In this document: positions 10,059 to 43,877 of the stretch, in pieces | How positions within the stretch are numbered: position 1 is the first letter of the stretch | How the letters are laid out: every line of letters starts with the position of its first letter | Assembly (NCBI GenBank): GCA_025456175.1 | Contig: JALOLC010000008.1 | Coordinates: 1-53,484 of the forward strand | DNA: 53,484 bases | Direction: 5' to 3' | From: Acidobacteriota bacterium | Lineage (GTDB): Bacteria; Acidobacteriota; Aminicenantia; UBA2199 | Made by a program: the position numbers and the translations under genes | The notes under the pieces: model-generated | What the model saw: only the letters and a program-made list of their open reading frames with translations | Told to the model about the DNA's origin: nothing | The model's database searches: none

Positions 10059-12041
10059 CTAAAGGTCCATGCGGATCGGCAGCGTCACCGAAGCGATCTC
10101 GTCCCAGTGCAGCTGGCGCTGGATGGCGAAGGCCGTCTCATTGTGCAGTATCTTGTGGTAGAACTTCTCGCGGCGAAAGGTCAGCTTGCCGGTGAAGACG
10201 GTGGAGCGGTGGAATTCGGACTTGATGTCCTTGCACAGCTGGGTGGCGGTTTCCACCACGTCGGTGCCCACGGCATGGCGCCAGTCGGAGGCGAAGCCCA
10301 AATGGCGCGCCAGGTCGACGTACTTCTGCAGGGTGGCCTTCGACGCCTCCTCCAGGTTCTTCAGCTCCTCGGCCCCCTTGAACGAGCCCGAATCGACCAC
10401 GGCCACCGAGGCGAAGATGAAGTTCTTGTAGAGGTTGGGGAAGTTGCGGATCACCGAGAGCACGGTGTGCACGCCGAAGCCGTTGAACTCGCTGACCAGC
10501 TGGATGGCGGTCATCTCCTGGGGATTGGGCGTCTCCGCGTTGGCCTTGCGGCTGGTGGGGATGTCCAGCAGCAGGTCGTCCAGCTGGCGCACCGCCTTCT
10601 TCACGTTGGCGTAATGCCGGCGGATCAGGAAACAGATGGCGACCAGCGTGCCGGTGATCAATAACGTCATCCATCCGCCCTCGCTGAATTTCTCGTAGCT
10701 GGTAATGATCAAAATAGTGAAGCAGAGAACGAGGCCGACAAGATGGATGGGCAGATGCCGGCGCCACTGCGTTTCCCGGCGGCGGTTTTGGATGTAGTAT
10801 TTGGACATGCCCAGCTGCGAGATGGAGAAGGTGAGAAACACGTTGATGGCGTACATGGTCACCAGGCTGGAGATCGAGCCGCGGGTATAAAGCAGGAGCA
10901 GGATCGAGGCGCCGCCCATGAGCAGGATGCCGTTGTGCATGGTCAGGCGCTGCGAGAGCGAGGCGAAGCGGTGGGGCAGCCAGGAGTCGATGGCCATGTT
11001 GGCCATGATGCGCGGGCCGTCGATGAAGCCGGCCTGGGCGGCCACGAACAGCAGGGCGCCCTCGGAGAGGATGGTGACCAGCGCCAGGCCATAGCCGAAC
11101 GACCAGTTGCCGTACAGGGCATTGGCCAGGATGGCGTTCAGCGTCTTGCCCTCTCCCGGGGCGACCTTGAGCAGCAGGTAGCAGAAGAAAAGGCCGCTGG
11201 CGGTGAAGGCCAGGGATACGGCCATGTAGAGCATGGTCTTCTTGCCGGTTTGCACCTTGGGCTCGCGCAGGATCTGCATGCCGTTGGCCACGGCCTCGAT
11301 GCCGGTGTAGGTTCCAGCCCCCATGGAATAGGCGCGCAGGAAAAGCGCCAGCATGCCCAGTCCGCCCAGGGTGGTCAGGCCCGAGTTGAAATCGTTGCGG
11401 ATGCCGTGCGCCACCGGCCCGATCTGCGGCAGGTGCGACAGGATGCCGTAGCCGATCATGAAGACATGGGTGACGACGAAGACGATGAAGATCGGCGCCA
11501 GAATGGTCACCGACTCCTTGACCCCGCGCAGGTTGAGCACGATCAGCAGCAGGATGAGGAACAACTCGAAGAATATCTTGTACTCGTGCAATCCCATGGG
11601 CAGGAAGCTGAAAATGGCGTCGCCGCAGGCGGCGATGGAGACGGTGATGGTCAGCATGTAGTCGACCAGCAGGGCGGTGCCCGACACGAGACCGGACTTG
11701 GGTCCCAGGGTGTGGGTGGCCACGATGTAGCCGCCGCCGCCGTGGGGAAAGTGCTCGATGATGCGTGAGTACGAGTACGAAATGATGAAAACGGTCAGCG
11801 AGGTGGCCAGGGCCAGGAAAATGGCCAGGTAGGTGTGCTGGCCCAGGGCGCGGAAGGCCTCCTCGGGTCCGTAGGAGGAGGAGGAGAGGCCGTCGGCGCC
11901 GAGGCCGATCCAGGCCAGCAGCGGCACCAGCGAGAGCTTGTGGAAGATGGAGGGGTCCTTGATGTTGCGCGGGGCGCCGACCACCGTCTGGCGCACCTTT
12001 TCCAGGAGCGTATCGTGTTCGTTTGAACCGTTCTGTGCCAT
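10059..12041 (-). CDS. KimA-like APC-superfamily K+ transporter with cytoplasmic C-terminal domain
   Basis: YSRIIEHFPHGGGGYIVATHTLGPKSGLVSGTALLVDYMLTITVSIAACGDAI and the C-terminal KILHNETAFAIQ...TLPIRM closely recall B. subtilis KimA as I remember it. AAGGA is 6 nt before the second ATG (12041). The first ATG is at 12047. Confidence 0.65.
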   Translation of the reverse strand: MAQNGSNEHDTLLEKVRQTVVGAPRNIKDPSIFHKLSLVPLLAWIGLGADGLSSSSYGPEEAFRALGQHTYLAIFLALATSLTVFIISYSYSRIIEHFPHGGGGYIVATHTLGPKSGLVSGTALLVDYMLTITVSIAACGDAIFSFLPMGLHEYKIFFELFLILLLIVLNLRGVKESVTILAPIFIVFVVTHVFMIGYGILSHLPQIGPVAHGIRNDFNSGLTTLGGLGMLALFLRAYSMGAGTYTGIEAVANGMQILREPKVQTGKKTMLYMAVSLAFTASGLFFCYLLLKVAPGEGKTLNAILANALYGNWSFGYGLALVTILSEGALLFVAAQAGFIDGPRIMANMAIDSWLPHRFASLSQRLTMHNGILLMGGASILLLLYTRGSISSLVTMYAINVFLTFSISQLGMSKYYIQNRRRETQWRRHLPIHLVGLVLCFTILIITSYEKFSEGGWMTLLITGTLVAICFLIRRHYANVKKAVRQLDDLLLDIPTSRKANAETPNPQEMTAIQLVSEFNGFGVHTVLSVIRNFPNLYKNFIFASVAVVDSGSFKGAEELKNLEEASKATLQKYVDLARHLGFASDWRHAVGTDVVETATQLCKDIKSEFHRSTVFTGKLTFRREKFYHKILHNETAFAIQRQLHWDEIASVTLPIRMDL

Positions 12042-21613: not shown

Positions 21614-21642
21614 ATTATAGGGAGATGAGGGATAAAAATCAA
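21614..21642 (-). promoter_or_regulatory. sigma70-type promoter of APC-M14 operon
   Basis: Minus strand reads TTGATT (21642-21637), a 17-nt spacer, then TATAAT (21619-21614). Confidence 0.5.
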
Positions 21643-21660
21643 TGGCAATAAAGCCAAAGT

Positions 21661-21701
21661 AAAAAAGTTAAAGCAGCGTAGGAGCGGTTCGCGAACCGCC
21701 C
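21661..21701 (-). terminator. possible clpA terminator
   Basis: Perfect 16-nt palindrome GCGGTTCGCGAACCGC (21684-21699) lies 7 nt past the clpA stop. A TTTTTT run follows about 17 nt downstream on the minus strand. Confidence 0.4.
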
Positions 21702-21706
21702 TTACA

Positions 21707-24010
21707 CTATTTCGCCTTTCGCCTTTTGCCCTGCCCTCTGTCTGCGATCTTGATCGCCAGCTCGTCCTTGACGACGTCGATGCGGGCCAGGCCCCCGTCC
21801 CTCAGGCGTCCGAACAGAACTTCGTCGACAAAGGGGTTCTTGATCTTTTCCTGGACCAGCCGCGACACTTCGCGGGCGCCGAAAATCCGGGAGAAGCCGC
21901 GCCTGGCCACCCAGGCAACGGCGGCCGGGCTGACGCGCAGGGCGACCCCTTTCTCCTTGAGCTGCTGGCTGAACTCGCCGAGCATTCTTGCCACGATGCG
22001 CGCCACCACGGCTTCGTCCAGGTTCCTGAAGGTGATTACGGCGTCGAGGCGATTGCGGAACTCGGGGGAGAAAAGCTTTTCCAGCGCCATGGCCACGGCT
22101 CCGGAGACGGGTTCGTTCTGGAAGCCGACCGCGGCCCGGCCCAGTTCCTTGGCCCCGGCGTTCGAGGTCATGATCAGCACCACGTTGCGGAAGTCGGCCT
22201 TGCGGCCGCTGTTGTCGGTCAGGGTGGCGTAGTCCATCACCTGCAGCAGGGTGTTGAAGATATCGGCGTGGGCCTTCTCGATCTCGTCCAGCAGCAGGAC
22301 GGCATAGGGCGCCTTGCGCACCGCATCGGTCAGCAGCCCGCCCTCCTCGTAACCGACATAGCCTGGCGGGGAGCCGACCAGGCGCGACACGGTGTGCTTC
22401 TCCTGGTACTCGCTCATGTCGAAGCGCAGCAGCGGCACGCCCAGAACATCGGCGAGCTGCCGGGCCAGCTCGGTCTTGCCCACGCCGGTGGGGCCGACAA
22501 AGAGGAACTTGGCCACCGGCTTGTCATTGTCACGGAATCCGGCCCGCGAGCGTTTGATGGCCCAGGCCGCCTTGGCCACCGCCTCGTCCTGGCCGAAGAT
22601 GCGCGACTTCAGCTCCTGCTCCAGGCGCTGCAGGTCGCGGTTCTCCGCCGTCGAAACGCTGCGGCGCGGGATCTTGGCCATGCTGGAAACGACCTGCTCG
22701 ACGGCATCGACAGCGATGGCCACCGGTCCCGCCTTGGCGGGAGCCTTCATGCGCGCCAGCGCCCCGGCCTCGTCGATGACGTCGATGGCCTTGTCGGGAA
22801 GGAAGCGGTCGTTGATGTATTTGCCCGACAGCTCGGCGGCGGCGCGCAGCACCTCGTCGGCGTAGGTCACCTGGTGGTATTCCTCGTAGCGGCGGCGCAG
22901 GCCGCGCAGGATCTCGTACGTCTCGGCGATCGACGGTTCGGAAATCTCGATCTTCTGGAAGCGGCGCGAGAGGGCCCGGTCCTTTTCAAAGTATTTCTTG
23001 TATTCCTCGTGGGTGGTGGTGCCGATGCAGCGCAGCCGGCCCTGGGTCAGGACCGGCTTCAGGATGTTGGCCGCATCCAGCGAGCCTCCCGAGACGGCGC
23101 CGGCGCCGATGATGGCGTGGACCTCGTCGATGAAGAGCACGGCGTTCGCTTCGCCCTGCAGCGCCGCCAGCACCTTCTTCAGCCGCTCCTCGAAGTCGCC
23201 GCGGTAGCGCGTGCCGGCCAGCAGCCCCCCCAGGTCCAGGGCGTAGATGCGGATATCCTTCAGCGCCGGCGGCACCTTGCCCTGGACCACGCGCTGGGCC
23301 AGCCCCTCGGTGATGGCCGTCTTGCCCACGCCGGCATCGCCGACATGGATCGGGTTGTTCTTGAAGCGGCGGCAAAGCACCTGCAGCGTGCGCTCCAGGA
23401 TCTCCTCGCGGCCGATCAACGGCTCGCTCTCCCCGGCGCGGGCCTTGTCGGTCAGCTCGCGGGTGAATTGCTGCAGGATCCCCTCGCCCCGGGGGAGAGG
23501 GGACTGCCTTGGACTGCCCTTGCCCGCGGGCAGGGCCTCGGATCTGCCGGCCGCCGGCTCGGCGGCGCCGCTGCCGCCCTCGTCCATGCCGTGAGAAATC
23601 ACCCGGAGCAGGGTGAAGCGGCTGATCCCCTCGCGCTGCAGCAGGTAGGCGGCGAACGACTCCTTTTCCTCGAGCAGGGCGGCGTAGAGGTCGCCGATCT
23701 CCAGGAGCTTCTTCTCGGCGGCCAGGGAGTGCACCACCGCCCGCTCCATCAGGTCCTGGAAGCCGAGGGAAGGGGTGGGATCGTCCTTGGCCGCCTTGGG
23801 CACGCGCTCGTTCAGGTAGGTTTCCAGCTCCTTTTTCATGAGCTCGACGTTGCCGCCGCAGCGGTCGATGATGCCGGCGCCGGAGGCGAAGAAGAGCGAC
23901 GCGTAGAAGATGTGCTCCGCGGTCAGGTACTCGTGGCGGCGGCCGCGGGCGTCGGCGAAGGCCACGGCCAGGATGCGGTTCAGCTCCTCCTGGATCTCCA
24001 TCTTGTCCAT
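21707..24010 (-). CDS. clpA: ATP-dependent Clp protease ATP-binding subunit ClpA
   Basis: Clp N-domain, two AAA+ modules (GDAGVGKT, GPTGVGKT), 767 aa. Confidence 0.9.
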   Translation of the reverse strand: MDKMEIQEELNRILAVAFADARGRRHEYLTAEHIFYASLFFASGAGIIDRCGGNVELMKKELETYLNERVPKAAKDDPTPSLGFQDLMERAVVHSLAAEKKLLEIGDLYAALLEEKESFAAYLLQREGISRFTLLRVISHGMDEGGSGAAEPAAGRSEALPAGKGSPRQSPLPRGEGILQQFTRELTDKARAGESEPLIGREEILERTLQVLCRRFKNNPIHVGDAGVGKTAITEGLAQRVVQGKVPPALKDIRIYALDLGGLLAGTRYRGDFEERLKKVLAALQGEANAVLFIDEVHAIIGAGAVSGGSLDAANILKPVLTQGRLRCIGTTTHEEYKKYFEKDRALSRRFQKIEISEPSIAETYEILRGLRRRYEEYHQVTYADEVLRAAAELSGKYINDRFLPDKAIDVIDEAGALARMKAPAKAGPVAIAVDAVEQVVSSMAKIPRRSVSTAENRDLQRLEQELKSRIFGQDEAVAKAAWAIKRSRAGFRDNDKPVAKFLFVGPTGVGKTELARQLADVLGVPLLRFDMSEYQEKHTVSRLVGSPPGYVGYEEGGLLTDAVRKAPYAVLLLDEIEKAHADIFNTLLQVMDYATLTDNSGRKADFRNVVLIMTSNAGAKELGRAAVGFQNEPVSGAVAMALEKLFSPEFRNRLDAVITFRNLDEAVVARIVARMLGEFSQQLKEKGVALRVSPAAVAWVARRGFSRIFGAREVSRLVQEKIKNPFVDEVLFGRLRDGGLARIDVVKDELAIKIADRGQGKRRKAK

Positions 24011-24394: not shown

Positions 24395-24427
24395 TGAAAG
24401 CGGATGCTTTGTGTCAGAACTTGGTTC

Positions 24428-24636
24428 ACGGTGTACGGTAGACGGTGTAAGGCAAGAAACGAAAACAAGATTCGCCGTACGTCGTACTGTTCAGGGGGGA
24501 CGGTAAATACCTGAAGCAAACTGCGCAAGACAGCGAGGAATGTCATTCCCTCCCACCGACTATTTCATGGTCAGTCGTGAACCGAGCTCACTTTTTTTCT
24601 TTACCGTCAACCGTTTGCCGTCAACCGTATACCGAG
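24428..24636. repeat. ACGGTNN / ACCGTNN heptamer arms separated by about 150 nt
   Basis: Left arm ACGGTGT ACGGTAG ACGGTGT (24428-24448). Right arm TACCGTC AACCGTT TGCCGTC AACCGTA TACCGAG (24602-24636). The arms are complementary in ACGGT/ACCGT blocks. Confidence 0.6.
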
Positions 24637-24655
24637 CTCAAAAGCGTGTCGGGTC

Positions 24656-24683
24656 TTGAAATAATAATTCCATTGTCTATAAT
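24656..24683 (+). promoter_or_regulatory. sigma70-type promoter
   Basis: TTGAAA (24656-24661), a 16-nt spacer, then TATAAT (24678-24683). GGTGAGGTG RBS lies before ATG 24703. Confidence 0.55.
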
Positions 24684-24702
24684 CTTCCCGGTGAGGTGCA
24701 GA

Positions 24703-26157: not shown

Positions 26158-26856
26158 ATGAAAACCCTGATTGCCATGCTGCTGCTCCCTTTGTCCCTGA
26201 TCCTGGCGGCCCAGGAGGAGCCGCTCGTTGCCGCCGATTCCCAGGATCAGGGGGCGTTTTTTTTCGAAGCCACCAGCCAGTATCTTTCCTTCGCCCTCGC
26301 TGACCTGGACGGAGCGGGGATCATTGGCAATGCCGACCAGGTGTTCTTTCTCCCCCGGATCAGGCCCAGCCTGGGCCTGGGTTTCGGCTTCGGCCGCCGC
26401 TTCCGCTCGGGGCTCTGGGCGGTCACCTACCTGGTCTCCGGACACGACGCCGACTTCCAGGCGCGGGAGAGCACAGCCGTGTCGCGCCTGGTCCAGGTCC
26501 ACTCGCGCATTTTCCTGAACCGCGCCTCGAGACTGCGGCCCTTTCTTCACGTGGGGCTCAGTTTTCCCTGGCTGAAAGTTCGCGACAATGTTGCCGACGG
26601 CAACGGCGTATTGCACGATGCCACCTACGCGGGCGTGGGCGTCAACGGCGGCGCCGGCCTTCTGGCTCCGCTCTCCTCGCGCATGTTCTTCAGCGCCAGC
26701 CTGGTCTGCCGCTACCTGGGCTACCTCTATGCCTATGGCCCGGTGAAGGGGATCGACGTGACCGATCTTTTCGACGGTGTGAGCGGCCCGCGCCACCGCC
26801 GTTTCCTGCGGGCTCCGGTCGTCGCGCTCGAATTAAGCTTGGGCTATGAGTTATAG
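26158..26856 (+). CDS. outer-membrane beta-barrel protein (small porin-like)
   Basis: Signal peptide MKTLIAMLLLPLSLILAAQ and alternating-hydrophobic beta-strand pattern. Confidence 0.55.
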   Translation: MKTLIAMLLLPLSLILAAQEEPLVAADSQDQGAFFFEATSQYLSFALADLDGAGIIGNADQVFFLPRIRPSLGLGFGFGRRFRSGLWAVTYLVSGHDADFQARESTAVSRLVQVHSRIFLNRASRLRPFLHVGLSFPWLKVRDNVADGNGVLHDATYAGVGVNGGAGLLAPLSSRMFFSASLVCRYLGYLYAYGPVKGIDVTDLFDGVSGPRHRRFLRAPVVALELSLGYEL

Positions 26857-26942
26857 TGACAAGTAACAAGTGACAAGTGACAAGGAAAAATGCAATTTCA
26901 AATGGATGTTCATGTCATTGCGGTTCCTCGTCACTCGTCACT
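26856..26942. repeat. GTGACAA-heptamer hairpin element, copy 1
   Basis: GTGACAA GTAACAA GTGACAA GTGACAA GGAA, then a 36-nt loop, then TTCCTCGTCACTCGTCACT. 17 of 19 stem positions are Watson-Crick. Confidence 0.8.
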
Positions 26943-26949: not shown

Positions 26950-26978
26950 TTGCCATTCCGGTCCGGCCCGGATAAAAT
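26950..26978 (+). promoter_or_regulatory. sigma70-type promoter
   Basis: TTGCCA (26950-26955), a 17-nt spacer, then TAAAAT (26973-26978). Confidence 0.5.
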
Positions 26979-26997: not shown

Positions 26998-27687
26998 ATG
27001 GCCAATTGCCTGAACTGCGGGGCGCCACTGACCGGAACGCTGCTGGTGTGCGATTATTGCAAGACCCGCCAGGATGTTGACCTGGCGGTGGTCCACCGCT
27101 TCACCGTCGAGACGCCCAGGTCGGCTCGGGTCTGCCCGCGCTGCCATATTCCCCTGCAGACCGTCGACCTGAGGCTGAAGGAGAAATTCCTGATCGAGCG
27201 CTGCGAGCGCTGCCTGGGCCTGTTTTTTGATCCCGGCGAGCTGGAGGCTTTCCTGGAGACGGCGGTGACCAACGTCCATGCCATTGATCCCCAGCGACTC
27301 AACGAGGTGCAGAGCGTCAAGCGCAACCACGAGTACCCGGTCAGCTACATCGACTGCCCGGTCTGCCGCCGGCTGATGAACCGCATCAACATCGGCTCGC
27401 GCAGCGGCGTCATCGCCGACCAGTGCCGCAACCACGGCCTCTGGCTCGACGGCGGCGAGTTGCGCCAGATCATGGAGTGGATGAAGGCGGGGGGCGGGCT
27501 GGTGCAGAGGGAGAAGGAGCTGGAAATGGCCAGGCTGGAGCTCGAGCAGGAGAAGAAGAAACTGCAGTTCGGCAGGATCGACCAGGCCTTCTTCCATACC
27601 CGTCCCGAGCCTGAGCGCAGGGACCTCGAACTGGACGTCCTGCCGCTGATCGGCAGATTGCTGAAGCGGATCTTTCGCAGGGAATAA
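26998..27687 (+). CDS. zinc-ribbon (zf-TFIIB-like, two copies) domain protein with coiled-coil tail
   Basis: CLNCGAPL...CDYC, CPRCHIPL...CERCLGLFFDPGELE and CPVCRRLM...CRNHGLWLDGGEL. Confidence 0.6.
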   Translation: MANCLNCGAPLTGTLLVCDYCKTRQDVDLAVVHRFTVETPRSARVCPRCHIPLQTVDLRLKEKFLIERCERCLGLFFDPGELEAFLETAVTNVHAIDPQRLNEVQSVKRNHEYPVSYIDCPVCRRLMNRINIGSRSGVIADQCRNHGLWLDGGELRQIMEWMKAGGGLVQREKELEMARLELEQEKKKLQFGRIDQAFFHTRPEPERRDLELDVLPLIGRLLKRIFRRE

Positions 27688-28930: not shown

Positions 28931-28942
28931 AAAGGAAAGGAC

Positions 28943-29043
28943 TCGGTATACGGTGGACGGTTGACGGCGGGCGGCAGCAGCGATCCTCGAACTAGAGCGG
29001 TGAATGGCAATGACCGTAAACCGTGTACCGTAAACCGTAGGCC
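28943..29043. repeat. ACGGTNN-heptamer hairpin element
   Basis: TCGGTAT ACGGTGG ACGGTTG ACGGCGG GCGGCAG faces GACCGTA AACCGTG TACCGTA AACCGTA. 4-5-bp helices are separated by 2x2 mismatches. Confidence 0.65.
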
Positions 29044-29119
29044 AAGCTTTGATGAATCGCGGTATTGATTTTCGGCGGCGTTTGTCCTACCATGGCTCTT
29101 TTCAAGACGGAGGAAGGCC

Positions 29120-29770: not shown

Positions 29771-29776
29771 CCCGTA

Positions 29777-29872
29777 CTCGGTGTAGGGTGCAAGGTGCAA
29801 GGTGAAGATGCTTATTGGATTTCTTGTCCTGTCTTTCCACCTGGCACCTTCTACCTTACACCCTGTGCCGAG
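29777..29872. repeat. GGTGCAA-heptamer hairpin element
   Basis: GGTGTAG GGTGCAA GGTGCAA GGTGAAG faces GCACCTT CTACCTT ACACCCT. The stem covers 28 positions: 22 WC, 4 G.U, 2 mismatches. Confidence 0.75.
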
Positions 29873-31876: not shown

Positions 31877-31995
31877 CAAGGGAAGAGAGAGGGAAAGCAG
31901 AGGGAAGACAGAGTGAAAGAAAAAGAGGTGTCAGCGGAGCTTTTTTGGGCTCCAGATTCCCTCTCTCGCTTCTGTCTTCCCCTTGTTTCTCTGAG
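31877..31995. repeat. polypurine / polypyrimidine inverted repeat
   Basis: 31878-31928 is 48/51 purine and 31957-31992 is 33/36 pyrimidine. Two perfect 11-bp complementarities: 31885-95 with 31957-67, and 31902-12 with 31971-81. Confidence 0.7.
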
Positions 31996-32044: not shown

Positions 32045-34624
32045 ATGCATATCGATATCCCGTTCCAGAAGTACGTCCTGGAGAACGGCCTGACGCTGAT
32101 CGTCCACGAGGACCGCAAGGCGCCGATCGTGGCCTGCAACGTCTGGTACCATGTCGGCTCGAAGAACGAGAAACCGGGCCGCACCGGCTTCGCCCATCTC
32201 TTCGAGCACCTGATGTTCAACTACTTCGAGAATGTGCCCACGCCCGCCTGCGACCTGGCCTTGTGGCTGGAATCGGACCGCATGGGCCATCTCCAGGGCG
32301 CCGTCAGCCAGGCCAAGCTGGATGAGCAGCGGGGGGTGGTGCAGAACGAGAAGCGCCAGTACGACAACGAGCCCTACAATGTCGCCGAGGAGCTCATCGC
32401 CAAGGCCTGCTTCCCGGCCGGCCATCCCTATTCCTGGACGGTGATCGGCTCCATGGCTGACCTGCAGGCGGCCACCCTGCAGGATGTCCACCAGTGGTTC
32501 GCCACCCATTACGGTCCCAACAATGCCGTGATCGTTATCTGCGGCGACATGGACGCCCAGACGGCACTGGCCAAGGTCAAACGCTATTTCGGCGACATCC
32601 CGCCCGGCCCGCCCGTCGCCCGTTATGAGGCCTGGATCGCCAAGCGCAGCGGCGAGCAGCGGCAAGCGGTGGAGGACCGCGTTCCCCAGGCCCGGATCAT
32701 GAAGATCTGGAACGCGCCCCAGGCCTTCAGCGCCGAGAACGACCAGCTGGGGCTGGCCGCGCAGCTGCTGGGCTCGGGCAAGACCTCGCGCCTGTACAAG
32801 CGCCTGGTCTACGATGACCAGATCGCCACCGACGTGGCGGTCTACGTTGATACGCGGGAGATCGCCGGGCTGTTCACCATCCAGGCCGACGTCAAGCCCG
32901 GGGTGGAGATCGCCGTGGTGGAGCAGGCCATTGATGAGGAGATGAAGCGCTTCCTGGCGTCCGGCCCCCAGCAGAAGGAGCTGGACAAGGTGCGCATGCA
33001 GTGCCTGGCGCGTTTCGTCCGCGGCTGCGAGCGCATTGGCGGCTTCGGCGGCAAGTCGGACATCCTCGCCCGCAGCCAGGTATTCGGCAGCAGCCCCGAC
33101 GCCTACCGCCGCACCCTGGAGAACATCGCAGCGGCCACGCCGGCCTTGATCAGGGAGGCCGCCGTCCGCTGGCTCTCCGACGGCGTCTACGTGCTGGAGA
33201 TCCGCCCTTATCCCGAGCTGGCCGCAGGCCGGGAGACGGTGGACCGCAGCCGCCTGCCCGAACCGGGTCCGGCGCCCGCCGTGCAGTTTCCCGAGTTCCG
33301 GCGCTTCACCCTGGACAACGGCCTGAAGGTCATGCTGGTCGAGCGTCATGCCGTCCCCATGGTCCGCCTGAACCTGGTCCTGGACGCGGGCTTTGCCACC
33401 GACCAGACGGGGATCGCCGGCACGGCCGAGCTGGCCATGGCCATGCTCGACGAGGGGACGACCCGGCGCAGCGCCCTGCAGATCAGCGAGGAGCTGGCAC
33501 TGCTCGGCGCCGGGCTGGGGACTGGCTCCGACCTGGACACCTCCGTGGTGTCGCTCTCCTCGCTGAAGGAGAAGCTCGATGCCGCCCTGGACATCTACGC
33601 CGACGTGATCCTGGACCCGCAGTTCCCGGAAGCCGATTTCCAGCGGCTGTTGAAGCTGCAGATCGCCCAGATCCAGCAGGAAAAGAGCTCGCCGTTCTCC
33701 ATGGCCTTGCGCGTCCTGCCCAGGCTGCTGTACGGATCCGGGCACGCCTACGGTACCCCCTTCAGCGGCACCGGCTACGAGGACTCGCTGGCCAGGCTGA
33801 CCCGCAGGGAGACGGTCGCCTTCCACCAGGCCTGGTTCAAGCCCGACCATGCCACGCTGGTGATTGTGGGCGCGACGACGGTCGGGGAGATGAAGCCCAG
33901 GTTGGAGAGGCTGTTCCAGGGCTGGCGCCCGGGGCCGATCCCGCCGAAGAACATCGCCGCCGTTGTCCCGCGCGCCCGGCCGGCCGTCTACATCATCGAC
34001 AAGCCCGCCTCACCCCAGTCGGTGGTCATCGCCGGCCAGCTGGCGCCTTCCTCGGCCGATCCCGAGCGCATCGCCATGGAGACCATGAACTTCATCCTCG
34101 GCGGCGACTTCGTCTCGCGCTTGAACATGAACATCCGCGAGGAGAAGCACTGGAGCTATGGCGCCGGCTCCTTCTTGTCCGGCGCCCGCGGCCAGCAGCC
34201 GTTCATCGCCTATGCCCCGGTGCAGGGCGACAAGACCCGGGAGACGATGGTGGAAATCCGCAAGGAGCTTGAGGGCATGCTGGGCCAGAAGCCGATCACC
34301 CAGGATGAATTCGCCAATGCCAAGAAAAGCCAGACCCTGCAGCTGCCGGGCTACTGGGAGACAATGGCGGCCGTAGAGGGGTCCCTGGTCGAGATGGTGC
34401 GCTACGGGCTGCCCGATGATTATTACCAGCGCTATCCCCAGCGGGTGCTCCAGCTGCAGGTTGCCGACCTGGACCGCGCCGCGCGCAAGGTCATCCATCC
34501 CGAGAACCTGGTTTGGGTGGTGGTCGGCGATCGGACCCTGATCGAGCCGCCGATTCGCGAACTCGGCTATGGCGAAGTCTTCGTCATCGACAGCGACGGC
34601 CAGCCGTCCAGCAAGCAACAGTGA
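32045..34624 (+). CDS. M16 family (pitrilysin/insulinase) zinc peptidase, fused double-module form
   Basis: HLFEHLMF (HxxEH) inverted zinc motif. 859 aa with two M16 halves. Confidence 0.85.
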   Translation: MHIDIPFQKYVLENGLTLIVHEDRKAPIVACNVWYHVGSKNEKPGRTGFAHLFEHLMFNYFENVPTPACDLALWLESDRMGHLQGAVSQAKLDEQRGVVQNEKRQYDNEPYNVAEELIAKACFPAGHPYSWTVIGSMADLQAATLQDVHQWFATHYGPNNAVIVICGDMDAQTALAKVKRYFGDIPPGPPVARYEAWIAKRSGEQRQAVEDRVPQARIMKIWNAPQAFSAENDQLGLAAQLLGSGKTSRLYKRLVYDDQIATDVAVYVDTREIAGLFTIQADVKPGVEIAVVEQAIDEEMKRFLASGPQQKELDKVRMQCLARFVRGCERIGGFGGKSDILARSQVFGSSPDAYRRTLENIAAATPALIREAAVRWLSDGVYVLEIRPYPELAAGRETVDRSRLPEPGPAPAVQFPEFRRFTLDNGLKVMLVERHAVPMVRLNLVLDAGFATDQTGIAGTAELAMAMLDEGTTRRSALQISEELALLGAGLGTGSDLDTSVVSLSSLKEKLDAALDIYADVILDPQFPEADFQRLLKLQIAQIQQEKSSPFSMALRVLPRLLYGSGHAYGTPFSGTGYEDSLARLTRRETVAFHQAWFKPDHATLVIVGATTVGEMKPRLERLFQGWRPGPIPPKNIAAVVPRARPAVYIIDKPASPQSVVIAGQLAPSSADPERIAMETMNFILGGDFVSRLNMNIREEKHWSYGAGSFLSGARGQQPFIAYAPVQGDKTRETMVEIRKELEGMLGQKPITQDEFANAKKSQTLQLPGYWETMAAVEGSLVEMVRYGLPDDYYQRYPQRVLQLQVADLDRAARKVIHPENLVWVVVGDRTLIEPPIRELGYGEVFVIDSDGQPSSKQQ

Positions 34625-34708
34625 AAAGTAAATGGTGAAAAGAAAGAGGGGCTGAAAGATTTCGGTGAAAATTACCCTGCATTTCACTTTTCACTATTCA
34701 CTTTTCAC
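34621..34708. repeat. GTGAAAA-heptamer hairpin element
   Basis: GTGAAAA GTAAATG GTGAAAA G faces TTTCACT TTTCACT ATTCACT TTTCACC. 22 positions: 20 WC, 1 G.U, 1 A.C. The first GTGA contains the M16 stop. Confidence 0.8.
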
Positions 34709-35323: not shown

Positions 35324-35452
35324 GGGGAGTTCTTTGACAGGGATGACTGAGTCATGCAGAACGGTTGAGAGCCCGGCTCGATGAACCCGTGCCAACCTTC
35401 CCGGCGCCCCGCCGGGAAAGGTGGAAACGCCTTTCACCAGGGAGGTGAAGCC
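35324..35452 (+). promoter_or_regulatory. structured 5' leader, unclassified
   Basis: 13-nt palindrome ATGACTGAGTCAT (35343-35355). 9-bp GC hairpin at 35398-35418. 7-bp bulged hairpin at 35420-35438, abutting the SD GGGAGG. Confidence 0.4.
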
Positions 35453-35698
35453 ATGACGGAAGTTACCTTTTTTGAAGATTTTCATTGCTTTGAATATCAC
35501 ACGCCGCAAGGTGCCGCGCAGCGCTTCCGCTATTACCTCTATTCCCCGGTATACGAGCGCATCCCGTTTTTCATCACGATATTAACGCAGGGGGAGTTCG
35601 CTCAGGAAAAAGTGACCTACTCCAGCGATTTTATCCCTTGTAGACTGGCTCGCCACTTGCAGGGCTTGAAGCGAACTGAAGTGACAAGTGAGGAGTGA
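35453..35698 (+). CDS. small hypothetical protein (81 aa), atypical composition
   Basis: GGGAGGTGA RBS lies 4 nt before the ATG. AT-rich third positions, unlike the neighbours. No homology recognised. Confidence 0.4.
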   Translation: MTEVTFFEDFHCFEYHTPQGAAQRFRYYLYSPVYERIPFFITILTQGEFAQEKVTYSSDFIPCRLARHLQGLKRTEVTSEE

Positions 35699-35774
35699 CA
35701 AGTGACAAGAAAGAAAAGGAAAACGGGTGAACGATTGATTTGATGCTGTTCCTCGTCACTGGTTACTTGTCACT
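35680..35774. repeat. GTGACAA-heptamer hairpin element, copy 2
   Basis: GTGACAA GTGAGGA GTGACAA GTGACAA faces GTTCCTCGTCACTGGTTACTTGTCACT. A 10-bp and a 9-bp helix flank a 4x4 internal loop. Confidence 0.8.
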
Positions 35775-38302: not shown

Positions 38303-38590
38303 ATGAAAAAGTTCATCGTGTTGTTTTTCATTGTCGTTCTGCTGTTTTCGTGCGCTCCCGGGCCGAACCGGCTGGCGAAGACGGCCAATCCCGAGGGGAA
38401 AGTAGCCGGCTTCTGGCAGGGTTTGTGGCACGGCCTGATCGCCCCCATCACGTTCATCGTATCCCTTTTCAGCAGCAAGGTCGCTCTCTATGAAGTGCAC
38501 AACAACGGCGGCTGGTACAATTTCGGTTTCGTGCTGGGCGCCGGGTTGTTCCTCAGCGGCGGCATCCTGGGCCGCAAGAAAAAGAAGTGA
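38303..38590 (+). CDS. small membrane lipoprotein, hypothetical
   Basis: Lipobox LLFSC after the signal peptide, two further hydrophobic segments, and a KKKK tail. Confidence 0.6.
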   Translation: MKKFIVLFFIVVLLFSCAPGPNRLAKTANPEGKVAGFWQGLWHGLIAPITFIVSLFSSKVALYEVHNNGGWYNFGFVLGAGLFLSGGILGRKKKK

Positions 38591-38705
38591 CGAGTGACAA
38601 GTGACGGGGTTTGAACGAACCTTCGTGACGCGTGACAAGGAAGAAAAACGTCTTTATTTCGATCGATGGGTATTTCTCGTCACTCGTTGCTTGTCACTTG
38701 TCACT
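38586..38705. repeat. GTGACAA-heptamer hairpin element, copy 3
   Basis: 38586-38608 pairs with 38683-38705 (19 WC plus 4 G.U over 23 positions). The loop carries an extra CGTGACG CGTGACA AGGAAGAAAAA arm. Confidence 0.8.
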
Positions 38706-38748: not shown

Positions 38749-40212
38749 CTATTTCCTGACCGGGAGCAGCGCCCGCAGTCGCCCCAGGTCCTCCTTCTTC
38801 ACGACGCGCAGGACGAAGAGCAGCGCGACGAATCCTCCCAGCAGGGCGAAGCGGTGCCACGTCTCCAGGCCGACCCGATAATAGAGGAAATAATAGGACA
38901 GGCCGGTGACGGCAACGACGCCCAGGATCTTCGCCAGTTTTCCGTATTCATAGGGGATGGGATAGAATTTCCGCGCAACAAAGTGAAGGCCGGCGGCCAT
39001 GACCAGGTAGCTGGCCAGTACGGCCAGCGCAGCGCCGCTGATGCCCAGGCGCGGGATGAGCAGCAGGTTGGCCAGGACGTTGACCAGGGCCCCGGCGCCG
39101 GTGATCAGCGGGAAATACTTGGTTTTTTCTGCGATATAGAACCCGGCCTGCAGGTTGACGTAGATGCCGTTGAAGAGATAGGCCAGAAGGATGATCGGCA
39201 CCACGACCAATCCGGGGAGGAATTGCCCGGCGATGAGCGAGCGGCCGGGGGCGAACTCCCAGCCGGCGGCAAGGTCGATGAACAGGGAAACGACCAGCCA
39301 CAGCAGGCTCGCTGCCAGGACGAAGAGGGTCATCACCCTGGCGAACATCTCCCGCGCGTTCTTCTCACGGGCATTGTTCAGGAAGAACGGCTGCCAGGCG
39401 TACTGGAACATGGAGACCACCAGCATCATGAAGATGCCGAGCTTGTGGCCGGTCTGGTAGAGCCCAAGCGTATCGGCATCGGTCAGGGCCAGGACGATGG
39501 GACGGTCGATGACCTGGATCATGATCGAAGCCAGGCTGGCGGGGAGGTAGGGGAGGCCGAAGCGCAGCATCCGCCGCAGGAGGGGCCCCTGGATCCTGCG
39601 GCCGAGCCGGGCCCAGGTCTCAGGCAGCAGGGCCAGGAAGGTCGCGGCCGAGGCGATGAGGTTGGCGGCGAAGATGGCCTCGATGCCCATGCGGAACTTG
39701 ACGAAAAAGAGGAGGTTGAGCCCCAGGTTGAGCAGGATGTTGCCCAGCTTGATGAAGGCGAATTTTTTCGCCTTGCGCTCCAGGCGCAGGTTGGCGAAGG
39801 GAATCAGGGCCAGGGTGTCGAAGAGCAGGATGAAGATGGTGTAGTAGACCAAGCGGGCGTATCCGGCGGGGACCTCCATCAGGCCCACGAAGGGATGGCG
39901 CAGCAGCAAGAGCGCCGCGCTCAGAATCAGGGTACTCATGACGACGGCGAGATAGGCGGTGGAAAACGTGATCTTCTTTTCCCCGGGCTCGGCCAGGGAG
40001 CTGTATTTCATGAAGGCGGCGTCCATGCCGTAGATATACACGATATTCAGGAACGCCAGGTAGGCGTAAACGTTGGTATAGATGCCCATGTCCCCGGGCG
40101 AGATGAAATGCGTATAGAAGGGGACGAGCAGGAAGCCGAGAAAGCGGCCGATGATGGTGGAAATGCCGTAGATCGCCGTGTCCCTGCCCAGTTCCTTTAT
40201 CTTTTCAATCAT
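38749..40212 (-). CDS. polysaccharide/oligosaccharide flippase, MOP superfamily (Wzx-like)
   Basis: About 14 TM segments. N-terminus MIEKIKELGRDTAIYGISTIIGRFLGFLLVPFYT is typical of Wzx/PST family proteins. Confidence 0.7.
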   Translation of the reverse strand: MIEKIKELGRDTAIYGISTIIGRFLGFLLVPFYTHFISPGDMGIYTNVYAYLAFLNIVYIYGMDAAFMKYSSLAEPGEKKITFSTAYLAVVMSTLILSAALLLLRHPFVGLMEVPAGYARLVYYTIFILLFDTLALIPFANLRLERKAKKFAFIKLGNILLNLGLNLLFFVKFRMGIEAIFAANLIASAATFLALLPETWARLGRRIQGPLLRRMLRFGLPYLPASLASIMIQVIDRPIVLALTDADTLGLYQTGHKLGIFMMLVVSMFQYAWQPFFLNNAREKNAREMFARVMTLFVLAASLLWLVVSLFIDLAAGWEFAPGRSLIAGQFLPGLVVVPIILLAYLFNGIYVNLQAGFYIAEKTKYFPLITGAGALVNVLANLLLIPRLGISGAALAVLASYLVMAAGLHFVARKFYPIPYEYGKLAKILGVVAVTGLSYYFLYYRVGLETWHRFALLGGFVALLFVLRVVKKEDLGRLRALLPVRK

Positions 40213-41366
40213 TAGAAAATGTCTCCTTGCCAGAGCCTGGCGCAGAATTGCTGCCAGGGAATAATTTGAATTCCGTTTTGGAGTTTCCTGGGGAAAGGAT
40301 CCCGCGAAACAATGAAATACTGGCGGCATTTTTCTTCCTGGCTGAACAGATGCAGCCCTTTGGTCCGCTCTCCCGCGTGATCGGATGATTTGATTTCGAT
40401 TGCCGCCTCTCCATCGCCAATGAGCAGGTCGACTTCAGCGCCGTTGGTTGTCCGCCAGAATGACAGTTCCAGATTTTTTTGGCTGTAATGGTTGTAAGCC
40501 CAGCACTCCTGCAGGATGAAATGCTCAAAAGCCCGGCCGTATTCATTCGTGCCCGGAGTGAGCGAACGGTAATTCAAGAGGCCGCTGACAATGCCGACAT
40601 CGAAAAAATAAAACTTGGCCGTATCGATCAGTCGCCGTTTTTTTGATTGTTTCCAGGGGAGTAGCCGTTTGCCCAGCAAAGTGTCTTCAAGGATCTGATA
40701 ATATTCACGGATAATCTTAGCCGAAACACCCGCTTCACGGGCGGCGTTGGAATAGTTCAGCAGCATACCGTTGGTCAAGGCCGCGGATTTAAGGAAAAGG
40801 CTGAAAGCGGGGAGATTGCGGGTCAGCGCTTCAGCCTGGATTTCCTCTTTCAGATAATCGTTGATGTATGCTTGCAGGTCCATGTGGAAATCGGAAGATA
40901 AATAATGGGCAGGAACGAGACCTGAACATAACGCTTTGTCCAAGTCCAATTGGCTGCCGATTTCCTTGCTTACTAATGGGAATAACTCATAGCGCCAGGC
41001 GCGGCCTCCCAAAAGACCGGTGTTGCCGCGTTTCAGTTTACGGGCACTCGAACCTGAAAGTATAAATTGATAGTGTTTATTTTCGATAAGCCAGTGGATT
41101 TCGTCCATCAGCTGCGGAATCTTTTGCACCTCGTCAATAACGATTGTTTTTCGTGTTTGGGCGGCGATCATTTGCCGAAGTTCCTTGGGGTTTTGGCTCA
41201 GACGCAAAAAAAGATCGAAGTCGAGTAGGTCAATCCAAAAAGCGTTGGCGAATTGTTGGCGTAGAAGTGTGGTTTTGCCGGTTTTGCGCGCTCCCCACAA
41301 AAAGGCGGACTGTCCCGCCGGCAGTTTGATGTTTAAAAATCTGGGCAGGATTTTTTTATTATTCAT
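40212..41366 (-). CDS. AAA family ATPase (AAA_14 / DUF4143 type)
   Basis: Walker A GARKTGKTT, Walker B TIVIDEVQ. Its stop overlaps the flippase start (TAATG). Low GC. Confidence 0.7.
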   Translation of the reverse strand: MNNKKILPRFLNIKLPAGQSAFLWGARKTGKTTLLRQQFANAFWIDLLDFDLFLRLSQNPKELRQMIAAQTRKTIVIDEVQKIPQLMDEIHWLIENKHYQFILSGSSARKLKRGNTGLLGGRAWRYELFPLVSKEIGSQLDLDKALCSGLVPAHYLSSDFHMDLQAYINDYLKEEIQAEALTRNLPAFSLFLKSAALTNGMLLNYSNAAREAGVSAKIIREYYQILEDTLLGKRLLPWKQSKKRRLIDTAKFYFFDVGIVSGLLNYRSLTPGTNEYGRAFEHFILQECWAYNHYSQKNLELSFWRTTNGAEVDLLIGDGEAAIEIKSSDHAGERTKGLHLFSQEEKCRQYFIVSRDPFPRKLQNGIQIIPWQQFCARLWQGDIF

Positions 41367-41372
41367 ACACCA

Positions 41373-41401
41373 ATGATATGATAATCTGCCCGGCAAGTCA
41401 A
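41373..41401 (-). promoter_or_regulatory. sigma70-type promoter, leaderless layout (AAA ATPase)
   Basis: Minus strand reads TTGACT (41401-41396), a 17-nt spacer, TATCAT (41378-41373), then 6 nt to ATG 41366. Confidence 0.55.
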
Positions 41402-41451
41402 ATTATCTGCGATAATCCGCCCATCAAGACAAATTATCCGCGATATGCCGG
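41380..41451. repeat. 2.3 tandem copies of a 31-bp unit rich in GATAAT/ATTATC hexamers
   Basis: Unit 1 is GATAATCTGCCCGGCAAGTCAAATTATCTGC (41380-41410). Unit 2 is GATAATCCGCCCATCAAGACAAATTATCCGC (41411-41441), 26/31 identical. A partial third unit follows. Confidence 0.75.
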
Positions 41452-41566
41452 CTTTCATTATTTGTTTTGTTTTTTGCATACCTCTTTTTTGTATTTGAGT
41501 TGTCCTTATTTTTTGGTTTTATGCGATCAGGTAGGGCCGCGGTTGTCGCGCCTCATATGCTGTCTT

Positions 41567-41595
41567 TTGACATCTATGCAGAAATCGGTTATAAA
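41567..41595 (+). promoter_or_regulatory. sigma70-type promoter of glnN
   Basis: TTGACA (41567-41572), a 17-nt spacer, then TATAAA (41590-41595). The leader opens with a 7-bp hairpin GATTTCG/CGAAATC. Confidence 0.6.
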
Positions 41596-41673
41596 ACGAT
41601 TTCGACTCGCCGAAATCCTAGAAGATTGTCGTGGGGAAAACCGCAGAAATTTAATTGGGATAGGGAAGGAAAA

Positions 41674-43761
41674 ATGAACGAAAAGTTTGCCAGCCATGTG
41701 TTTGGCCTGGAGAAACTGCAACAGACCCTGCCGCCGCAGATTTTCAAAAAGTTCAACCGTACGGTCGACCAGAAAAAAACTCTCGATGCCGACGTGGCGG
41801 AAGCGGTGGCCCATGCGATCAAAAAGTGGGCCGAGCATCTGGGTGTCACCCATTTTACGCATTGGTTCATGCCGTTGACCGGATTGACCGCCGGCAAGCA
41901 GAATACCTTCCTGGAATGGGAGGGTAACCGCAAGATCATTTCCTGTTTTTCCGGGCGCGACCTGATCAAGGGGGAGCCGGATGCTTCGTCATTCCCGCAC
42001 GGCGGTATGCGCTCGACCTTTGAGGCCCGCGGCTACACGGCCTGGGATCCCTGTTCTCCGGTCTTCGCGGTCAAAAGCCGCAAGAATTGCGTCCTCTTCA
42101 TCCCCTCGGTCTTTTATGGTTACAATGGTTGTGTTTTGGATAAAAAAACACCGCTGCTGCGTTCGTTGCGGTTGATCAATGATATTTCGCTTACTATACT
42201 CACCAAGTTCAACCTGCGGGCCCAATGGGTGAAAAACATGGTCGGCGCCGAGCAGGAGTTTTTTCTGATCTATGAAAAGGACTACCAGCAACGTCCCGAC
42301 CTGAAAACCGTCGGCCGGCTGATTTTCGGCGCCCGACCCCCAAGGGGGCAGCAGATGGGCGACCATTATTTTGGCGCCATTCCCGAAGCGGTGCTGCACT
42401 TCCTCGAGGATGTGGAGGAAGAGGCTTTGAACCTGGGCATTCCGGTTAAAACCCGCCATAACGAGGTGGCTCCCAACCAATTTGAAATTGCTCCACTTTA
42501 CGAGGAAGCCAACATCGCCGCCGATCATAACCAGTTGTTAATGGACCTGTTGATTCGTATCGCCCGTAATCATGGCATGGTCTGTTTGTTGCATGAGAAG
42601 CCCTTTGCTTTTTTTAATGGCAGCGGCAAACACATTAACTGGTCGTTAATGGATAGTCAGGGACGGAACTTGTTCACTCCTGGCGATAATAAAAACTCAC
42701 GGCTGGTATTTTTGAGTTTTTTAGCCGGGTTTATCTGCGGTATGAACCGCTATCATGATCTGTTGCAGGCGGTGCTGGCTTCCCCAGGAAACGAGCTGCG
42801 TTTGGGTGGCCATGAAGCGCCCCCGGCCATCATTTCTATCTTTTTGGGCGATGAATTGCAAGGAGTGATCGATGATCCCCAGGCCTTCATTACCGGTAGA
42901 TTTCGTAAATCGAAAATGGTACGCTTCGAAGAATTCGTGCCGGCGATTCTCCATGATCTCTCTGACCGCAACCGTACTTCACCCGTGGCATTTACCGGCA
43001 ACAAGTTCGAGTTTCGGATGCCCGGATCATCGGCTTCAATGGCTTTTCCGATCTCTGTGATCAATCTGCTTGTAGCCGCCGGTTTGACGGAAGTATACAA
43101 GGCCATAGAGAAGACTCGGGACGAAAAGGCGTTGGTTCATAAACTGCAGCATATCATCAGGGAAAACTCGGGTATAATTTTTGCCGGAGATAACTATAAC
43201 TCAGATTGGCATAGGGAAGCCCGCCGGCGGGGGTTGTTCATTCCGGTTTCGGTACCTGAGACGGTTGACCGTTTGCAGGAAGAAAAAAACATACGTTTGT
43301 TCGAAACATTCGACATACTTTCACGGGAAGAGATCAAGGCTAGAGCCGATATCAAGATCGAAATCTATGTCAAAACCGTGGAAATGGAATTGCGTGTCGC
43401 CCGTAATCTTTTGCGTGTCTATATTATTCCGGCGGCGCTTAAGAACCAAGCTATGCTTCTCGAAGCGATCCGCAAGTTTCCCCGGGAAATTCTGGCCAAG
43501 AAGCCGGCCATGCTAAAAAAGCAGCTTGCTTTCATCGCCAAATTCACTGAAAAGATCAACCGGTCAATGGAAATGGTATCTTTGCTGGATGAGGATAATG
43601 ACAAACTGAAAGAAGGAGATGATCGCACGCGAGCTCAATTTTGCACCAAGTTCATCCGGCCGCATTTGGCAGATGCGGCTATCCTGGTGGAGAAGATCGA
43701 AGAACGGGTGGACCGTGATTTCTGGAAGCTGCCGCGGGTGACCGACATCCTGTTCAGATAA
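41674..43761 (+). CDS. glnN: glutamine synthetase type III
   Basis: 695 aa with KTRHNEVAPNQFEIAP, NGSGKHINWS and LGGHEAPPAIIS motifs. GGAAGGA RBS. Low GC. Confidence 0.85.
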   Translation: MNEKFASHVFGLEKLQQTLPPQIFKKFNRTVDQKKTLDADVAEAVAHAIKKWAEHLGVTHFTHWFMPLTGLTAGKQNTFLEWEGNRKIISCFSGRDLIKGEPDASSFPHGGMRSTFEARGYTAWDPCSPVFAVKSRKNCVLFIPSVFYGYNGCVLDKKTPLLRSLRLINDISLTILTKFNLRAQWVKNMVGAEQEFFLIYEKDYQQRPDLKTVGRLIFGARPPRGQQMGDHYFGAIPEAVLHFLEDVEEEALNLGIPVKTRHNEVAPNQFEIAPLYEEANIAADHNQLLMDLLIRIARNHGMVCLLHEKPFAFFNGSGKHINWSLMDSQGRNLFTPGDNKNSRLVFLSFLAGFICGMNRYHDLLQAVLASPGNELRLGGHEAPPAIISIFLGDELQGVIDDPQAFITGRFRKSKMVRFEEFVPAILHDLSDRNRTSPVAFTGNKFEFRMPGSSASMAFPISVINLLVAAGLTEVYKAIEKTRDEKALVHKLQHIIRENSGIIFAGDNYNSDWHREARRRGLFIPVSVPETVDRLQEEKNIRLFETFDILSREEIKARADIKIEIYVKTVEMELRVARNLLRVYIIPAALKNQAMLLEAIRKFPREILAKKPAMLKKQLAFIAKFTEKINRSMEMVSLLDEDNDKLKEGDDRTRAQFCTKFIRPHLADAAILVEKIEERVDRDFWKLPRVTDILFR

Positions 43762-43774
43762 TAGCGAACGATAC

Positions 43775-43871
43775 ATGTTGGCGGTAGTGGTCGTGTTAGC
43801 AACTGGCAATAAACCGAAATCTCGATAGAACTTAAAAAGGTTCTTCCTGACACTAACACCAACACCAACAC
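43775..43871. repeat. hexamer-periodic weak inverted repeat (GGTNGT / CACCAA)
   Basis: GTTGGC GGTAGT GGTCGT GTTAGC faces CACTAA CACCAA CACCAA CAC. About 4 of every 6 positions pair. Confidence 0.45.
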
Positions 43872-43877
43872 TTTTGC

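Follow-up and report, generated by a model that had tools for sequence, protein, structure and literature searches.

Inverted heptamer arrays between a stop codon and a promoter

The subject of this study is an inverted pair of tandem heptamer arrays, built on the unit GTGACAA, in a 53,484-nucleotide (nt) stretch of DNA from an Acidobacteriota bacterium (Aminicenantia; UBA2199; contig JALOLC010000008.1 of assembly GCA_025456175.1); we refer to this whole stretch as the window. The pair, which is copy 1 of the family described below, occupies the spacer between a gene for a protein of 232 amino acids (aa) and the gene for a Zn-ribbon protein, where its parts and neighbors are arranged as follows.

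26158-26856, + strand: upstream gene, 232 aa, with a signal peptide; its TAG stop codon (26854-26856) overlaps the first unit
26856-26883, + strand: 5' array of copy 1, GTGACAA GTAACAA GTGACAA GTGACAA, starting on the G of the TAG
26884-26887, + strand: inner purine stem GGAA, partner of TTCC at 26924-26927
26888-26923, + strand: loop of copy 1, 36 nt, A/T-rich, with a small internal helix
26924-26942, + strand: 3' arm TTCC TCGTCAC TCGTCAC T, with 2 units
26950-26978, + strand: sigma70-like promoter TTGCCA-17-TAAAAT of the next gene, 8 nt past the hairpin
26998-27687, + strand: downstream gene, Zn-ribbon protein, used to retrieve orthologous loci

A preliminary description of this DNA had reported an array beginning on the G of the TAG codon, a 36-nt loop and then a 3' arm, and the sequence is exactly as described. 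It had also paired positions 26869-26887 with 26924-26942 at 17 of 19 positions, a helix that RNAfold reproduces as 6+6+5 base pairs (bp) with two 1x1 A.C mismatches between the blocks; the outer two units of the 5' array are left unpaired in the window strain. Relative to shuffled sequences, the sense RNA of copy 1 is predicted to be stable (-32.3 kcal/mol, z -4.1) and the antisense RNA more so (-35.3 kcal/mol, z -6.3), because the A.C mismatches turn into G.U on that strand. No T-run was found after copy 1, the tail of which reads GAAGAGATTG, in agreement with the reported lack of a U-tract. The reported placement of stop codons in all frames stands as well: the 5' arm closes 3/3 frames on the + strand and 2/3 on the - strand, and the 3' arm closes none. 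Other parts of the description need amendment. The upstream gene had been labeled as encoding an outer membrane protein, and although the predicted product does carry a signal peptide, it has no Pfam or NCBIfam match that would support the label. The GC content is ~63%, not ~70%.

A dispersed GTGACAA family

The preliminary description placed two further copies of the element at 35680-35774 and 38586-38705, and both are present there. Copies 1 and 2 share GTTCCTCGTCACT exactly and copy 3 contains TTTCTCGTCACT, as had been noted. The loops of the three copies differ, also as noted, but are not wholly unrelated, as each opens with a purine run (GGAAAAA, GAAAGAAAAGGAAAA and GGAAGAAAAA). In the window, sequences within 2 mismatches of GTGACAAGTGAC occur 17 times against 2.3 +/- 1.5 in shuffled sequences, GTGACRA occurs 22 times against 8.0 expected, and four strong tandem tracts have a period of 7 nt while none has a period of 4, 5, 8, 10 or 11 nt. 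A chance origin of the hairpins is ruled out by these shuffle comparisons. An assembly artifact is ruled out as well, because 4-6 independent assemblies at 99.6-100% identity carry the hairpins unchanged. The proposal that GTGACAA hairpins form a dispersed family is thus borne out by the extra copies, both in the window and in relatives. An Rfam scan of the window at the gathering score matched no hairpin (its sole match was a SAM riboswitch, described below), and the window contains no tRNA or tmRNA genes.

A wider class of hairpins with tandem-repeat arms

Using Tandem Repeats Finder together with direct reading of the intergenic regions, we found that the GTGACAA hairpin belongs to a group of about ten intergenic hairpins, all in the window, whose arms are tandem repeats. 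Besides copy 1, these are listed here, with a strand given only for the structure at the end of clpA.

21640-21735, - strand: degenerate AAAGGCG / CTTTNNN heptamers around a GC-rich hairpin plus T-run, 3' of clpA
24417-24639: ACGGTNN-unit arms ~160 nt apart, flanked by two divergent sigma70-like promoters
28939-29043: ACGGTNN-unit hairpin, 3' of an OmpA-domain gene
29774-29868: GGTGCAA-unit hairpin between convergent genes
31890-31992: period-11 purine-arm hairpin, unit AGGGAAGAGAG, in a divergent intergenic region
34621-34708: GTGAAAA-unit hairpin, 3' of an M16 peptidase gene, with the TGA stop in the first unit
35680-35774: copy 2 of the GTGACAA family, between convergent genes; its first units contain the stop of an 81-aa open reading frame (ORF), and a histidine-kinase gene on the opposite strand ends at 35773
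38586-38705: copy 3 of the GTGACAA family, a nested double hairpin between convergent genes, with the upstream TGA stop inside the first unit
43783-43870: hexamer-arm hairpin GTGTTR / YAACAC, 3' of the gene for type III glutamine synthetase (GSIII)

The units of the window class are thus GTGACAA, GTGAAAA, ACGGTNN, GGTGCAA, one 6-mer and one 11-mer; across the window and its relatives they measure 6, 7, 8 or 11 nt, mostly 7 nt. Five positions of a unit are typically conserved and two vary, and a helix is usually built of 6-bp blocks, with one mismatch falling in each unit; loops or arm spacings measure 30-160 nt. Six of the window hairpins have fold z scores of -3 to -6 on both strands. Four or five of the hairpins occupy co-directional spacers, three convergent ones and two divergent ones; none lies wholly within a called gene of the window, and none was found in its first 21 kb. 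We note that the last codons of clpA contain the left-hand degenerate heptamers, and that the hairpin and T-run there resemble a classical terminator; the structure may represent a transitional form that links plain terminators with heptamer-armed hairpins.

Repeat units turn over while position and architecture persist

To follow one site through the lineage, we took the spacer that separates the 232-aa gene from the Zn-ribbon gene and compared it across 12 genomes with 78-100% identity in the flanking protein. Its contents, listed here by locus (L numbers denote the loci compared), differ as follows.

Window, L015, L018/L019 and L009: GTGACRA units
L010: ~13 TTAGACG units opposite 3
L016: 8-mer GGGTTCAA opposite TTCAACCC, with a C.C mismatch per unit
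L021: GTTCGAN units
L022/L024: GACGGNN units
L017/L023: GC-rich, repeat-free sequence (plain hairpin)
L007 and L020: no spacer; the genes abut

Position and architecture persist at this orthologous site while the unit sequence turns over. The ortholog in L022, for example, folds with a z score of -7.0, and the loop of copy 1 is kept in L018 with few substitutions. We considered whether the plain GC hairpin of L017/L023 might be a functional equivalent and rejected it, as its fold is no better than that of shuffled sequences (z 0.0). By eye, every locus that has a spacer shows a -35/-10-like motif after the hairpin (the promoter scan itself covered only the window), and L007 and L020 have neither hairpin nor promoter-like motif.

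Turnover is also apparent between close strains. In coding DNA the locus L015 matches the window at ~98% identity, yet four elements differ. The right arm of copy 1 has four units in L015 and two in the window, a 14-nt, two-unit indel; the 28939-29043 hairpin and its promoter region are missing (28931-29119), leaving flanking genes that nearly abut; at 29774-29868 a GTGACAA-type hairpin replaces the GGTGCAA one, the final codons of the gene upstream being exchanged with it; and the divergent spacer 24395-24702 differs throughout. A gene between two of these variable sites is 96.9% identical, against ~98.5%, so that the differences may as well reflect the recombinational replacement of alleles as transposition. 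Strains at 99.6-100% identity show no hairpin polymorphism, variation starting at ~98%. An 11-nt, one-unit indel does separate the period-11 hairpin of the window (31879-31917) from that of L012, an assembly 99.8% identical to it. Separately, the M16 peptidase gene differs in length between the same two assemblies, with 138 nt at 33675-33812 of the window standing against 90 nt at 10487-10576 of L012.

The arms themselves point to how such changes arise. The left arm of copy 1 and its orthologs is built of GTGACAA, whereas their right arm is equivalent to GTGACGA, and the identity between units is 0.93-1.00 within an arm and 0.80-0.82 between arms. Arms that are uniform but differ from each other are the signature of slippage inside each arm, and slippage and turnover of units are features of the class. 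Changes on a larger scale occur in L010, where a compound multi-array element of 220 nt is present as two inverted copies (90% identity) and a third, partial copy, and in L020, where a 206-nt stretch is directly duplicated (2616-2821 and 4463-4660, 87% identity); larger blocks can therefore duplicate or move. We also observed that the L010 copies, at 5349-5626 and 10847-11157, flank a 5.3-kb segment of five genes, the partial copy (1-55) forming the contig end, and that such compound elements (200-310 nt) combine several heptamer arrays with an AAATTCC/GGAATTT hairpin.

Heptamer arrays in the lineage and beyond

The relatives that share the gene order of the window around the OmpA-domain protein (L007 and L009) are labeled Candidatus Aminicenantes, which agrees with the earlier judgment that the host is not a cyanobacterium. 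L010 (CAZLSH010000073.1) carries the label 'uncultured Clostridia bacterium', and its gene order, with 65-87% protein identity, is common to the window and metagenome-assembled genomes (MAGs) of Aminicenantes. On sequence grounds the Clostridia label is probably a binning error. In its 11.5 kb L010 has 14 period-7 tracts, with the units TYAGACG, GTGACGC, GTGATGC, GGAATTT and ACCGTNN; L007 and L009 have GTGATRA units, and L020 and L022 have other units again. The units ACGGNNN, GTGACGC, GGAATTT and GTTCGAN recur at non-orthologous sites of different genomes. Across 265 kb of non-redundant DNA from the lineage, 33 of 55 period-7 tracts face an inverted partner no more than 260 nt away, compared with 2 of 91 period-5 and 2 of 75 period-6 tracts; pairing therefore belongs to the heptamer arrays and not to repeats generally. 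No period-7 tract was found in ~115 kb from eight loci that are not syntenic with the window and are titled in their records as other phyla or as Aminicenantes; L003, L005 and L006 are among the loci devoid of tracts.

Three GTGACRA units in tandem also occur in 73 contigs of the IMG/VR database, of GC 0.25-0.70, where we estimate that ~0.2 would be expected by chance, and some of these arrays are paired. Two composition-matched controls, (GGACTRA)3 and (GATGCRA)3, occur in 40 and 4 contigs, respectively, and (TYAGACG)3 in 3; GTGACRA is thus frequent without being unique. In the 73 contigs, 103 of 356 period-7 tracts are paired. Contigs of GC 0.63-0.69 have 7-10 of their 8-16 tracts paired, against 0-2 of 8-13 at GC 0.41-0.47, and we would guess that the low-GC, heptamer-rich contigs are cyanobacterial. 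Clean paired GTGACRA hairpins do occur at 32-38% GC, in L034 and L087, and one with a 10-nt loop is present in L082. We note that some of the viral-classified IMG/VR contigs (among L025-L097 and L102-L141) carry 10-16 heptamer tracts in ~10 kb.

Comparison with known repeats

REP and BIME elements lie mostly at gene 3' ends and in convergent spacers, with roles in protecting mRNA 3' ends, in termination and as sites for IHF and gyrase; REPs are linked to RAYT transposases (IS200/IS605-like, Y1). The hairpins described here resemble REP, BIME and REPIN elements in location and presumed roles and in being imperfect intergenic palindromes of several families per genome that vary between strains (for REPINs, see PMC3116915). 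They differ in that REPs have no tandem sub-repeats, and in that REPIN copies share a spacer, whereas the loops of copies 1-3 differ; the window contains no self-match of 45 nt or longer. As with an intrinsic terminator, a stable hairpin lies immediately past a stop codon and ahead of the next promoter, but here the hairpin has no U-tract, a stem of 17-30 bp with periodic mismatches and a loop of at least 30 nt, and elements also sit between divergent promoters.

The preliminary description regarded the STRR repeats of heterocystous cyanobacteria as the only comparable class. These are indeed tandem 7-nt intergenic units, but they are neither the only nor the closest comparison, since paired sites in Geobacter are closer. 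The STRR1-3 units are, as we understand them, different from GTGACAA, ACGGTNN and the other units of the window. Nostoc and STRR heptamers likewise form several families per genome (bioRxiv 10.1101/2022.06.06.494920), but are reported as direct arrays, mostly near promoters and start codons, and occur in a different taxon. An inverted partner is not obligatory for STRR arrays, whereas 33 of 55 tracts are paired here. Another heptamer, TAACTGA, is found as direct repeats in marine Beggiatoaceae, Cyanobacteria and Bacteroidetes (MacGregor 2015, PMC4679880). It too is intergenic, occurs in sets of 2-6 units and brings stops in all frames, forms 'split' sets with related heptamers, overlaps the ends of some ORFs and has a patchy phylogenetic spread (PMC4679880). 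It differs in being a single unit that is repeated directly, just upstream of start codons, in being inverted in only 1 of 170 sets and in having a proposed role in translation (PMC4679880).

The closest precedent, compared by description, is the set of paired tandem 7-9-mers of G. metallireducens, where classes 1-3 are pairs of intergenic sites on opposite strands at a variable distance (Aklujkar et al. 2009, PMC2700814). The sites consist of four GTTGCTYN units (24 pairs), three TCTCCGTS[Y] units (21 pairs) or five MTYCTGA units (8 pairs), appear only in supplementary figures, in the form of alignments, and were interpreted as binding sites for IHF/HU, not as hairpins; G. sulfurreducens is without these repeats and carries another repeat at that location (PMC2700814). 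As far as the descriptions allow comparison, both systems have three to five tandem 7-9-mers per site, on opposite strands, in several classes per genome. The phylum differs, as do the units (GTTGCTYN, TCTCCGTS and MTYCTGA match no unit here), and abutment on stop codons, polymorphism in unit number and unit turnover are not reported for Geobacter. As the window units differ from the Geobacter consensuses, we regard the elements described here as an analog of that system and not a member of it. We found no publication that describes repeats of this kind in Aminicenantes.

A possible 3'-end hairpin that separates transcription units

The class itself is directly observed; its function, on which the preliminary description made no proposal, we infer. 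Our preferred but tentative reading, to which we assign a probability of roughly 45%, is that the element is an extragenic palindrome of the REP kind, acting as a 3'-end hairpin without a U-tract that separates transcription units, and that slippage creates its heptamer arms and alters their length. Transcripts of the upstream gene would fold into the hairpin, which would then, independently of a U-tract, either terminate transcription or block exonucleases at the 3' end and so insulate two transcription units, a role of the kind ascribed to REP/BIME elements; between convergent genes one palindrome would serve both transcripts. Under this reading the purine-rich arm would come 5' on either strand, the GTGA-type families would supply stops in three frames, and the heptamer substructure would come from replication slippage within the arms and not from functional need.

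Several observations are consistent with this reading. Arrays start -11 to +36 nt from the upstream stop, and in co-directional spacers 31-176 nt are left to accommodate the next promoter; copy 1 spans the interval from the upstream stop codon to 8 nt before its sigma70-like promoter. Hairpin and promoter are gained or lost together across relatives. In the window, canonical hairpin-plus-T terminators are not enriched (43 found, 46.4 expected), and sigma70-like promoters are (25 against 8.5 expected). The 5' arms of GTGA-type elements close 3/3 frames on the + strand and 2-3 on the - strand, their 3' arms closing none, and such arrays may therefore take over the last codons of a gene harmlessly.

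Other observations weigh against it. The hairpins lack a U-tract and have loops of 30-160 nt, unlike a canonical terminator, and the elements at 24417-24639 and 31890-31992 lie between divergent promoters, so that they cannot be terminators. Three-frame stops are missing from the ACGG, GTTCGA and AAAAGG families, and some relatives are without the element, which is thus dispensable. Copy 1 and its orthologs have an A.C mismatch in nearly every unit, leaving the antisense fold far more stable (in L015, -60.7 against -43.2 kcal/mol for the sense strand). Compensatory change is weak: in 19 GTGAC-type hairpins, aligned over the inner two units per arm with an artificial GAAA linker (alignment A1) and picked by a motif regular expression, which biases the set, 91.4% of cells are paired against 88.3% in shuffles, and the compensatory changes (4 pairs, 7 cells) do not exceed those in shuffles. 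No excess of G.U over A.C was found on the sense strand either, and we accordingly rejected selection on the sense-strand RNA. We also rejected a canonical intrinsic terminator, as a consensus scan flagged none of the hairpins and copy 1 has a 36-nt loop and no U-tract, and we dropped 'purine arm first' as evidence of gene direction, since a palindrome of this kind is purine-first on both strands. The only asymmetric feature is the run of purines that opens the loop, and all examples of it are downstream of + strand genes.

Alternative explanations

The occupation of all three kinds of spacer, divergent ones included, would also be expected of a selfish or neutral repeat without host function, either mobile or duplicative in the manner of MITE and REPIN elements or generated by slippage and template switching. 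The same can be said of the recurrence of unit families at non-orthologous sites in different genomes, of a single orthologous site that holds one of five families, a plain hairpin or nothing, of presence, absence and replacement at ~98% nucleotide identity, and of the compound copies in L010 (220 nt) and L020 (206 nt); in Geobacter, moreover, insertion sequence (IS) elements lie at a fixed distance from the analogous sites (PMC2700814). We nevertheless consider such a repeat somewhat unlikely. Loops vary among copies of one family in one genome, unlike those of typical MITE or REPIN elements, no target-site duplication was seen, copies are stable at 99.6-100% identity, and the differences in L015 take in gene ends and a more divergent gene, as allelic replacement by recombination would. 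Among the ORFs called in the 53 kb there is no transposase, RAYT (among ORFs of at least ~65 aa), reverse transcriptase or integrase. A selfish origin would, in any case, be compatible with a co-opted function. The elements between divergent promoters and the variable distance between arms (30-160 nt) can be accommodated if the arrays act as DNA, binding an IHF/HU-like or regulatory protein, with an inverted layout that reflects dimeric or looping binding and not a hairpin. Neither transcribed strand is favored, units have five conserved and two variable positions, and Aklujkar et al. took the Geobacter 7-9-mers for sites of the global regulators IHF/HU (PMC2700814). It is difficult to see, however, how at least ten unrelated units in one clade could be served other than by many proteins or by no specific one; a spacing of 7 bp does not keep phase with the turns of the DNA helix, and units are exchanged at a single site around which the flanking genes and promoter remain the same. 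We regard protein-binding arrays as distinctly unlikely.

A more speculative combination, to which we give still less credence, is that the hairpins are the product of a previously undescribed copying mechanism specific to each unit family and that the host uses them as terminators. Such a mechanism, perhaps a non-autonomous 'microsatellite palindrome' element or templated repeat addition at both sides of a break, would place paired, inverted 7-nt arrays at the ends of genes, both in several bacterial phyla and in phage-like contigs, and the host would gain U-tract-independent, bidirectional terminators with built-in three-frame stops. The position of elements at ORF 3' ends, the retention of structure with variable sequence and the clearly more stable bottom-strand fold of copy 1 would all suit an integron attC-type site, that is, a single-stranded hairpin at the 3' end of a cassette that recombines through its bottom strand. 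Here the context is largely refuting and makes the idea highly improbable: the flanking genes are syntenic, of housekeeping type and equipped with their own promoters, not promoterless cassettes, elements are also found in divergent and convergent spacers, GTTRRRY / RYYYAAC cores are absent and no integrase is present among the called ORFs of the window. An attC site sits by intI, in one orientation and with R''/R' cores, whereas the spacers here are of mixed orientation.

Other features of the window

The riboswitch found by the Rfam scan, an S-adenosylmethionine (SAM) riboswitch on the + strand at 35349-35459 (RF00162, 57.7 bits, E 8e-11), lies upstream of the 81-aa ORF (35453-35698) that ends in copy 2. 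This ORF has no Pfam or NCBIfam match, is called as a gene in other assemblies and is in part conserved in L010 (by eye); it may encode an uncharacterized small SAM-regulated protein. A 31-nt tandem repeat, GATAATCCGCCCAGCAAGACAAATTATCCGC, is present in 2.1 copies at 41380-41445, just upstream of the GSIII gene (41467-43761), within a stretch of low GC (40000-44000; 47-51% against ~64%) and adjoining a gene for a DUF4143 AAA ATPase (40212-41396). The repeat could be a regulatory operator or foreign DNA. Finally, the Hdr/Flx-type genes mentioned in the preliminary description are present, as a gene for an HdrA/FlpD-like protein (2366-4732; FlpD, pyridine nucleotide-disulphide oxidoreductase and 4Fe-4S domains) with ferredoxin-type neighbors (872-6561).

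Implications

These hairpins form a fast-evolving and barely described class in an Aminicenantes-like lineage, and most likely they mark where transcription units end. Both extragenic palindromes and heptamer microsatellites have been described separately; their systematic combination here, with complementary arms made of tandem arrays, many unit families and rapid turnover of units at a fixed site, was glimpsed once, in the 2009 Geobacter paper, and never explained. In practical terms, unit number and presence or absence are strain-level markers, and the arrays are a likely source of assembly breaks and, because several ORFs end inside the first unit, of mis-called gene 3' ends. If the elements are mobile or made by an enzyme, they would reveal a new repeat-generating process. 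If they are terminators or stabilizers, they would show how a little-studied phylum without enriched hairpin-plus-U terminators ends its transcripts, and would be useful for the prediction of operons in MAGs.

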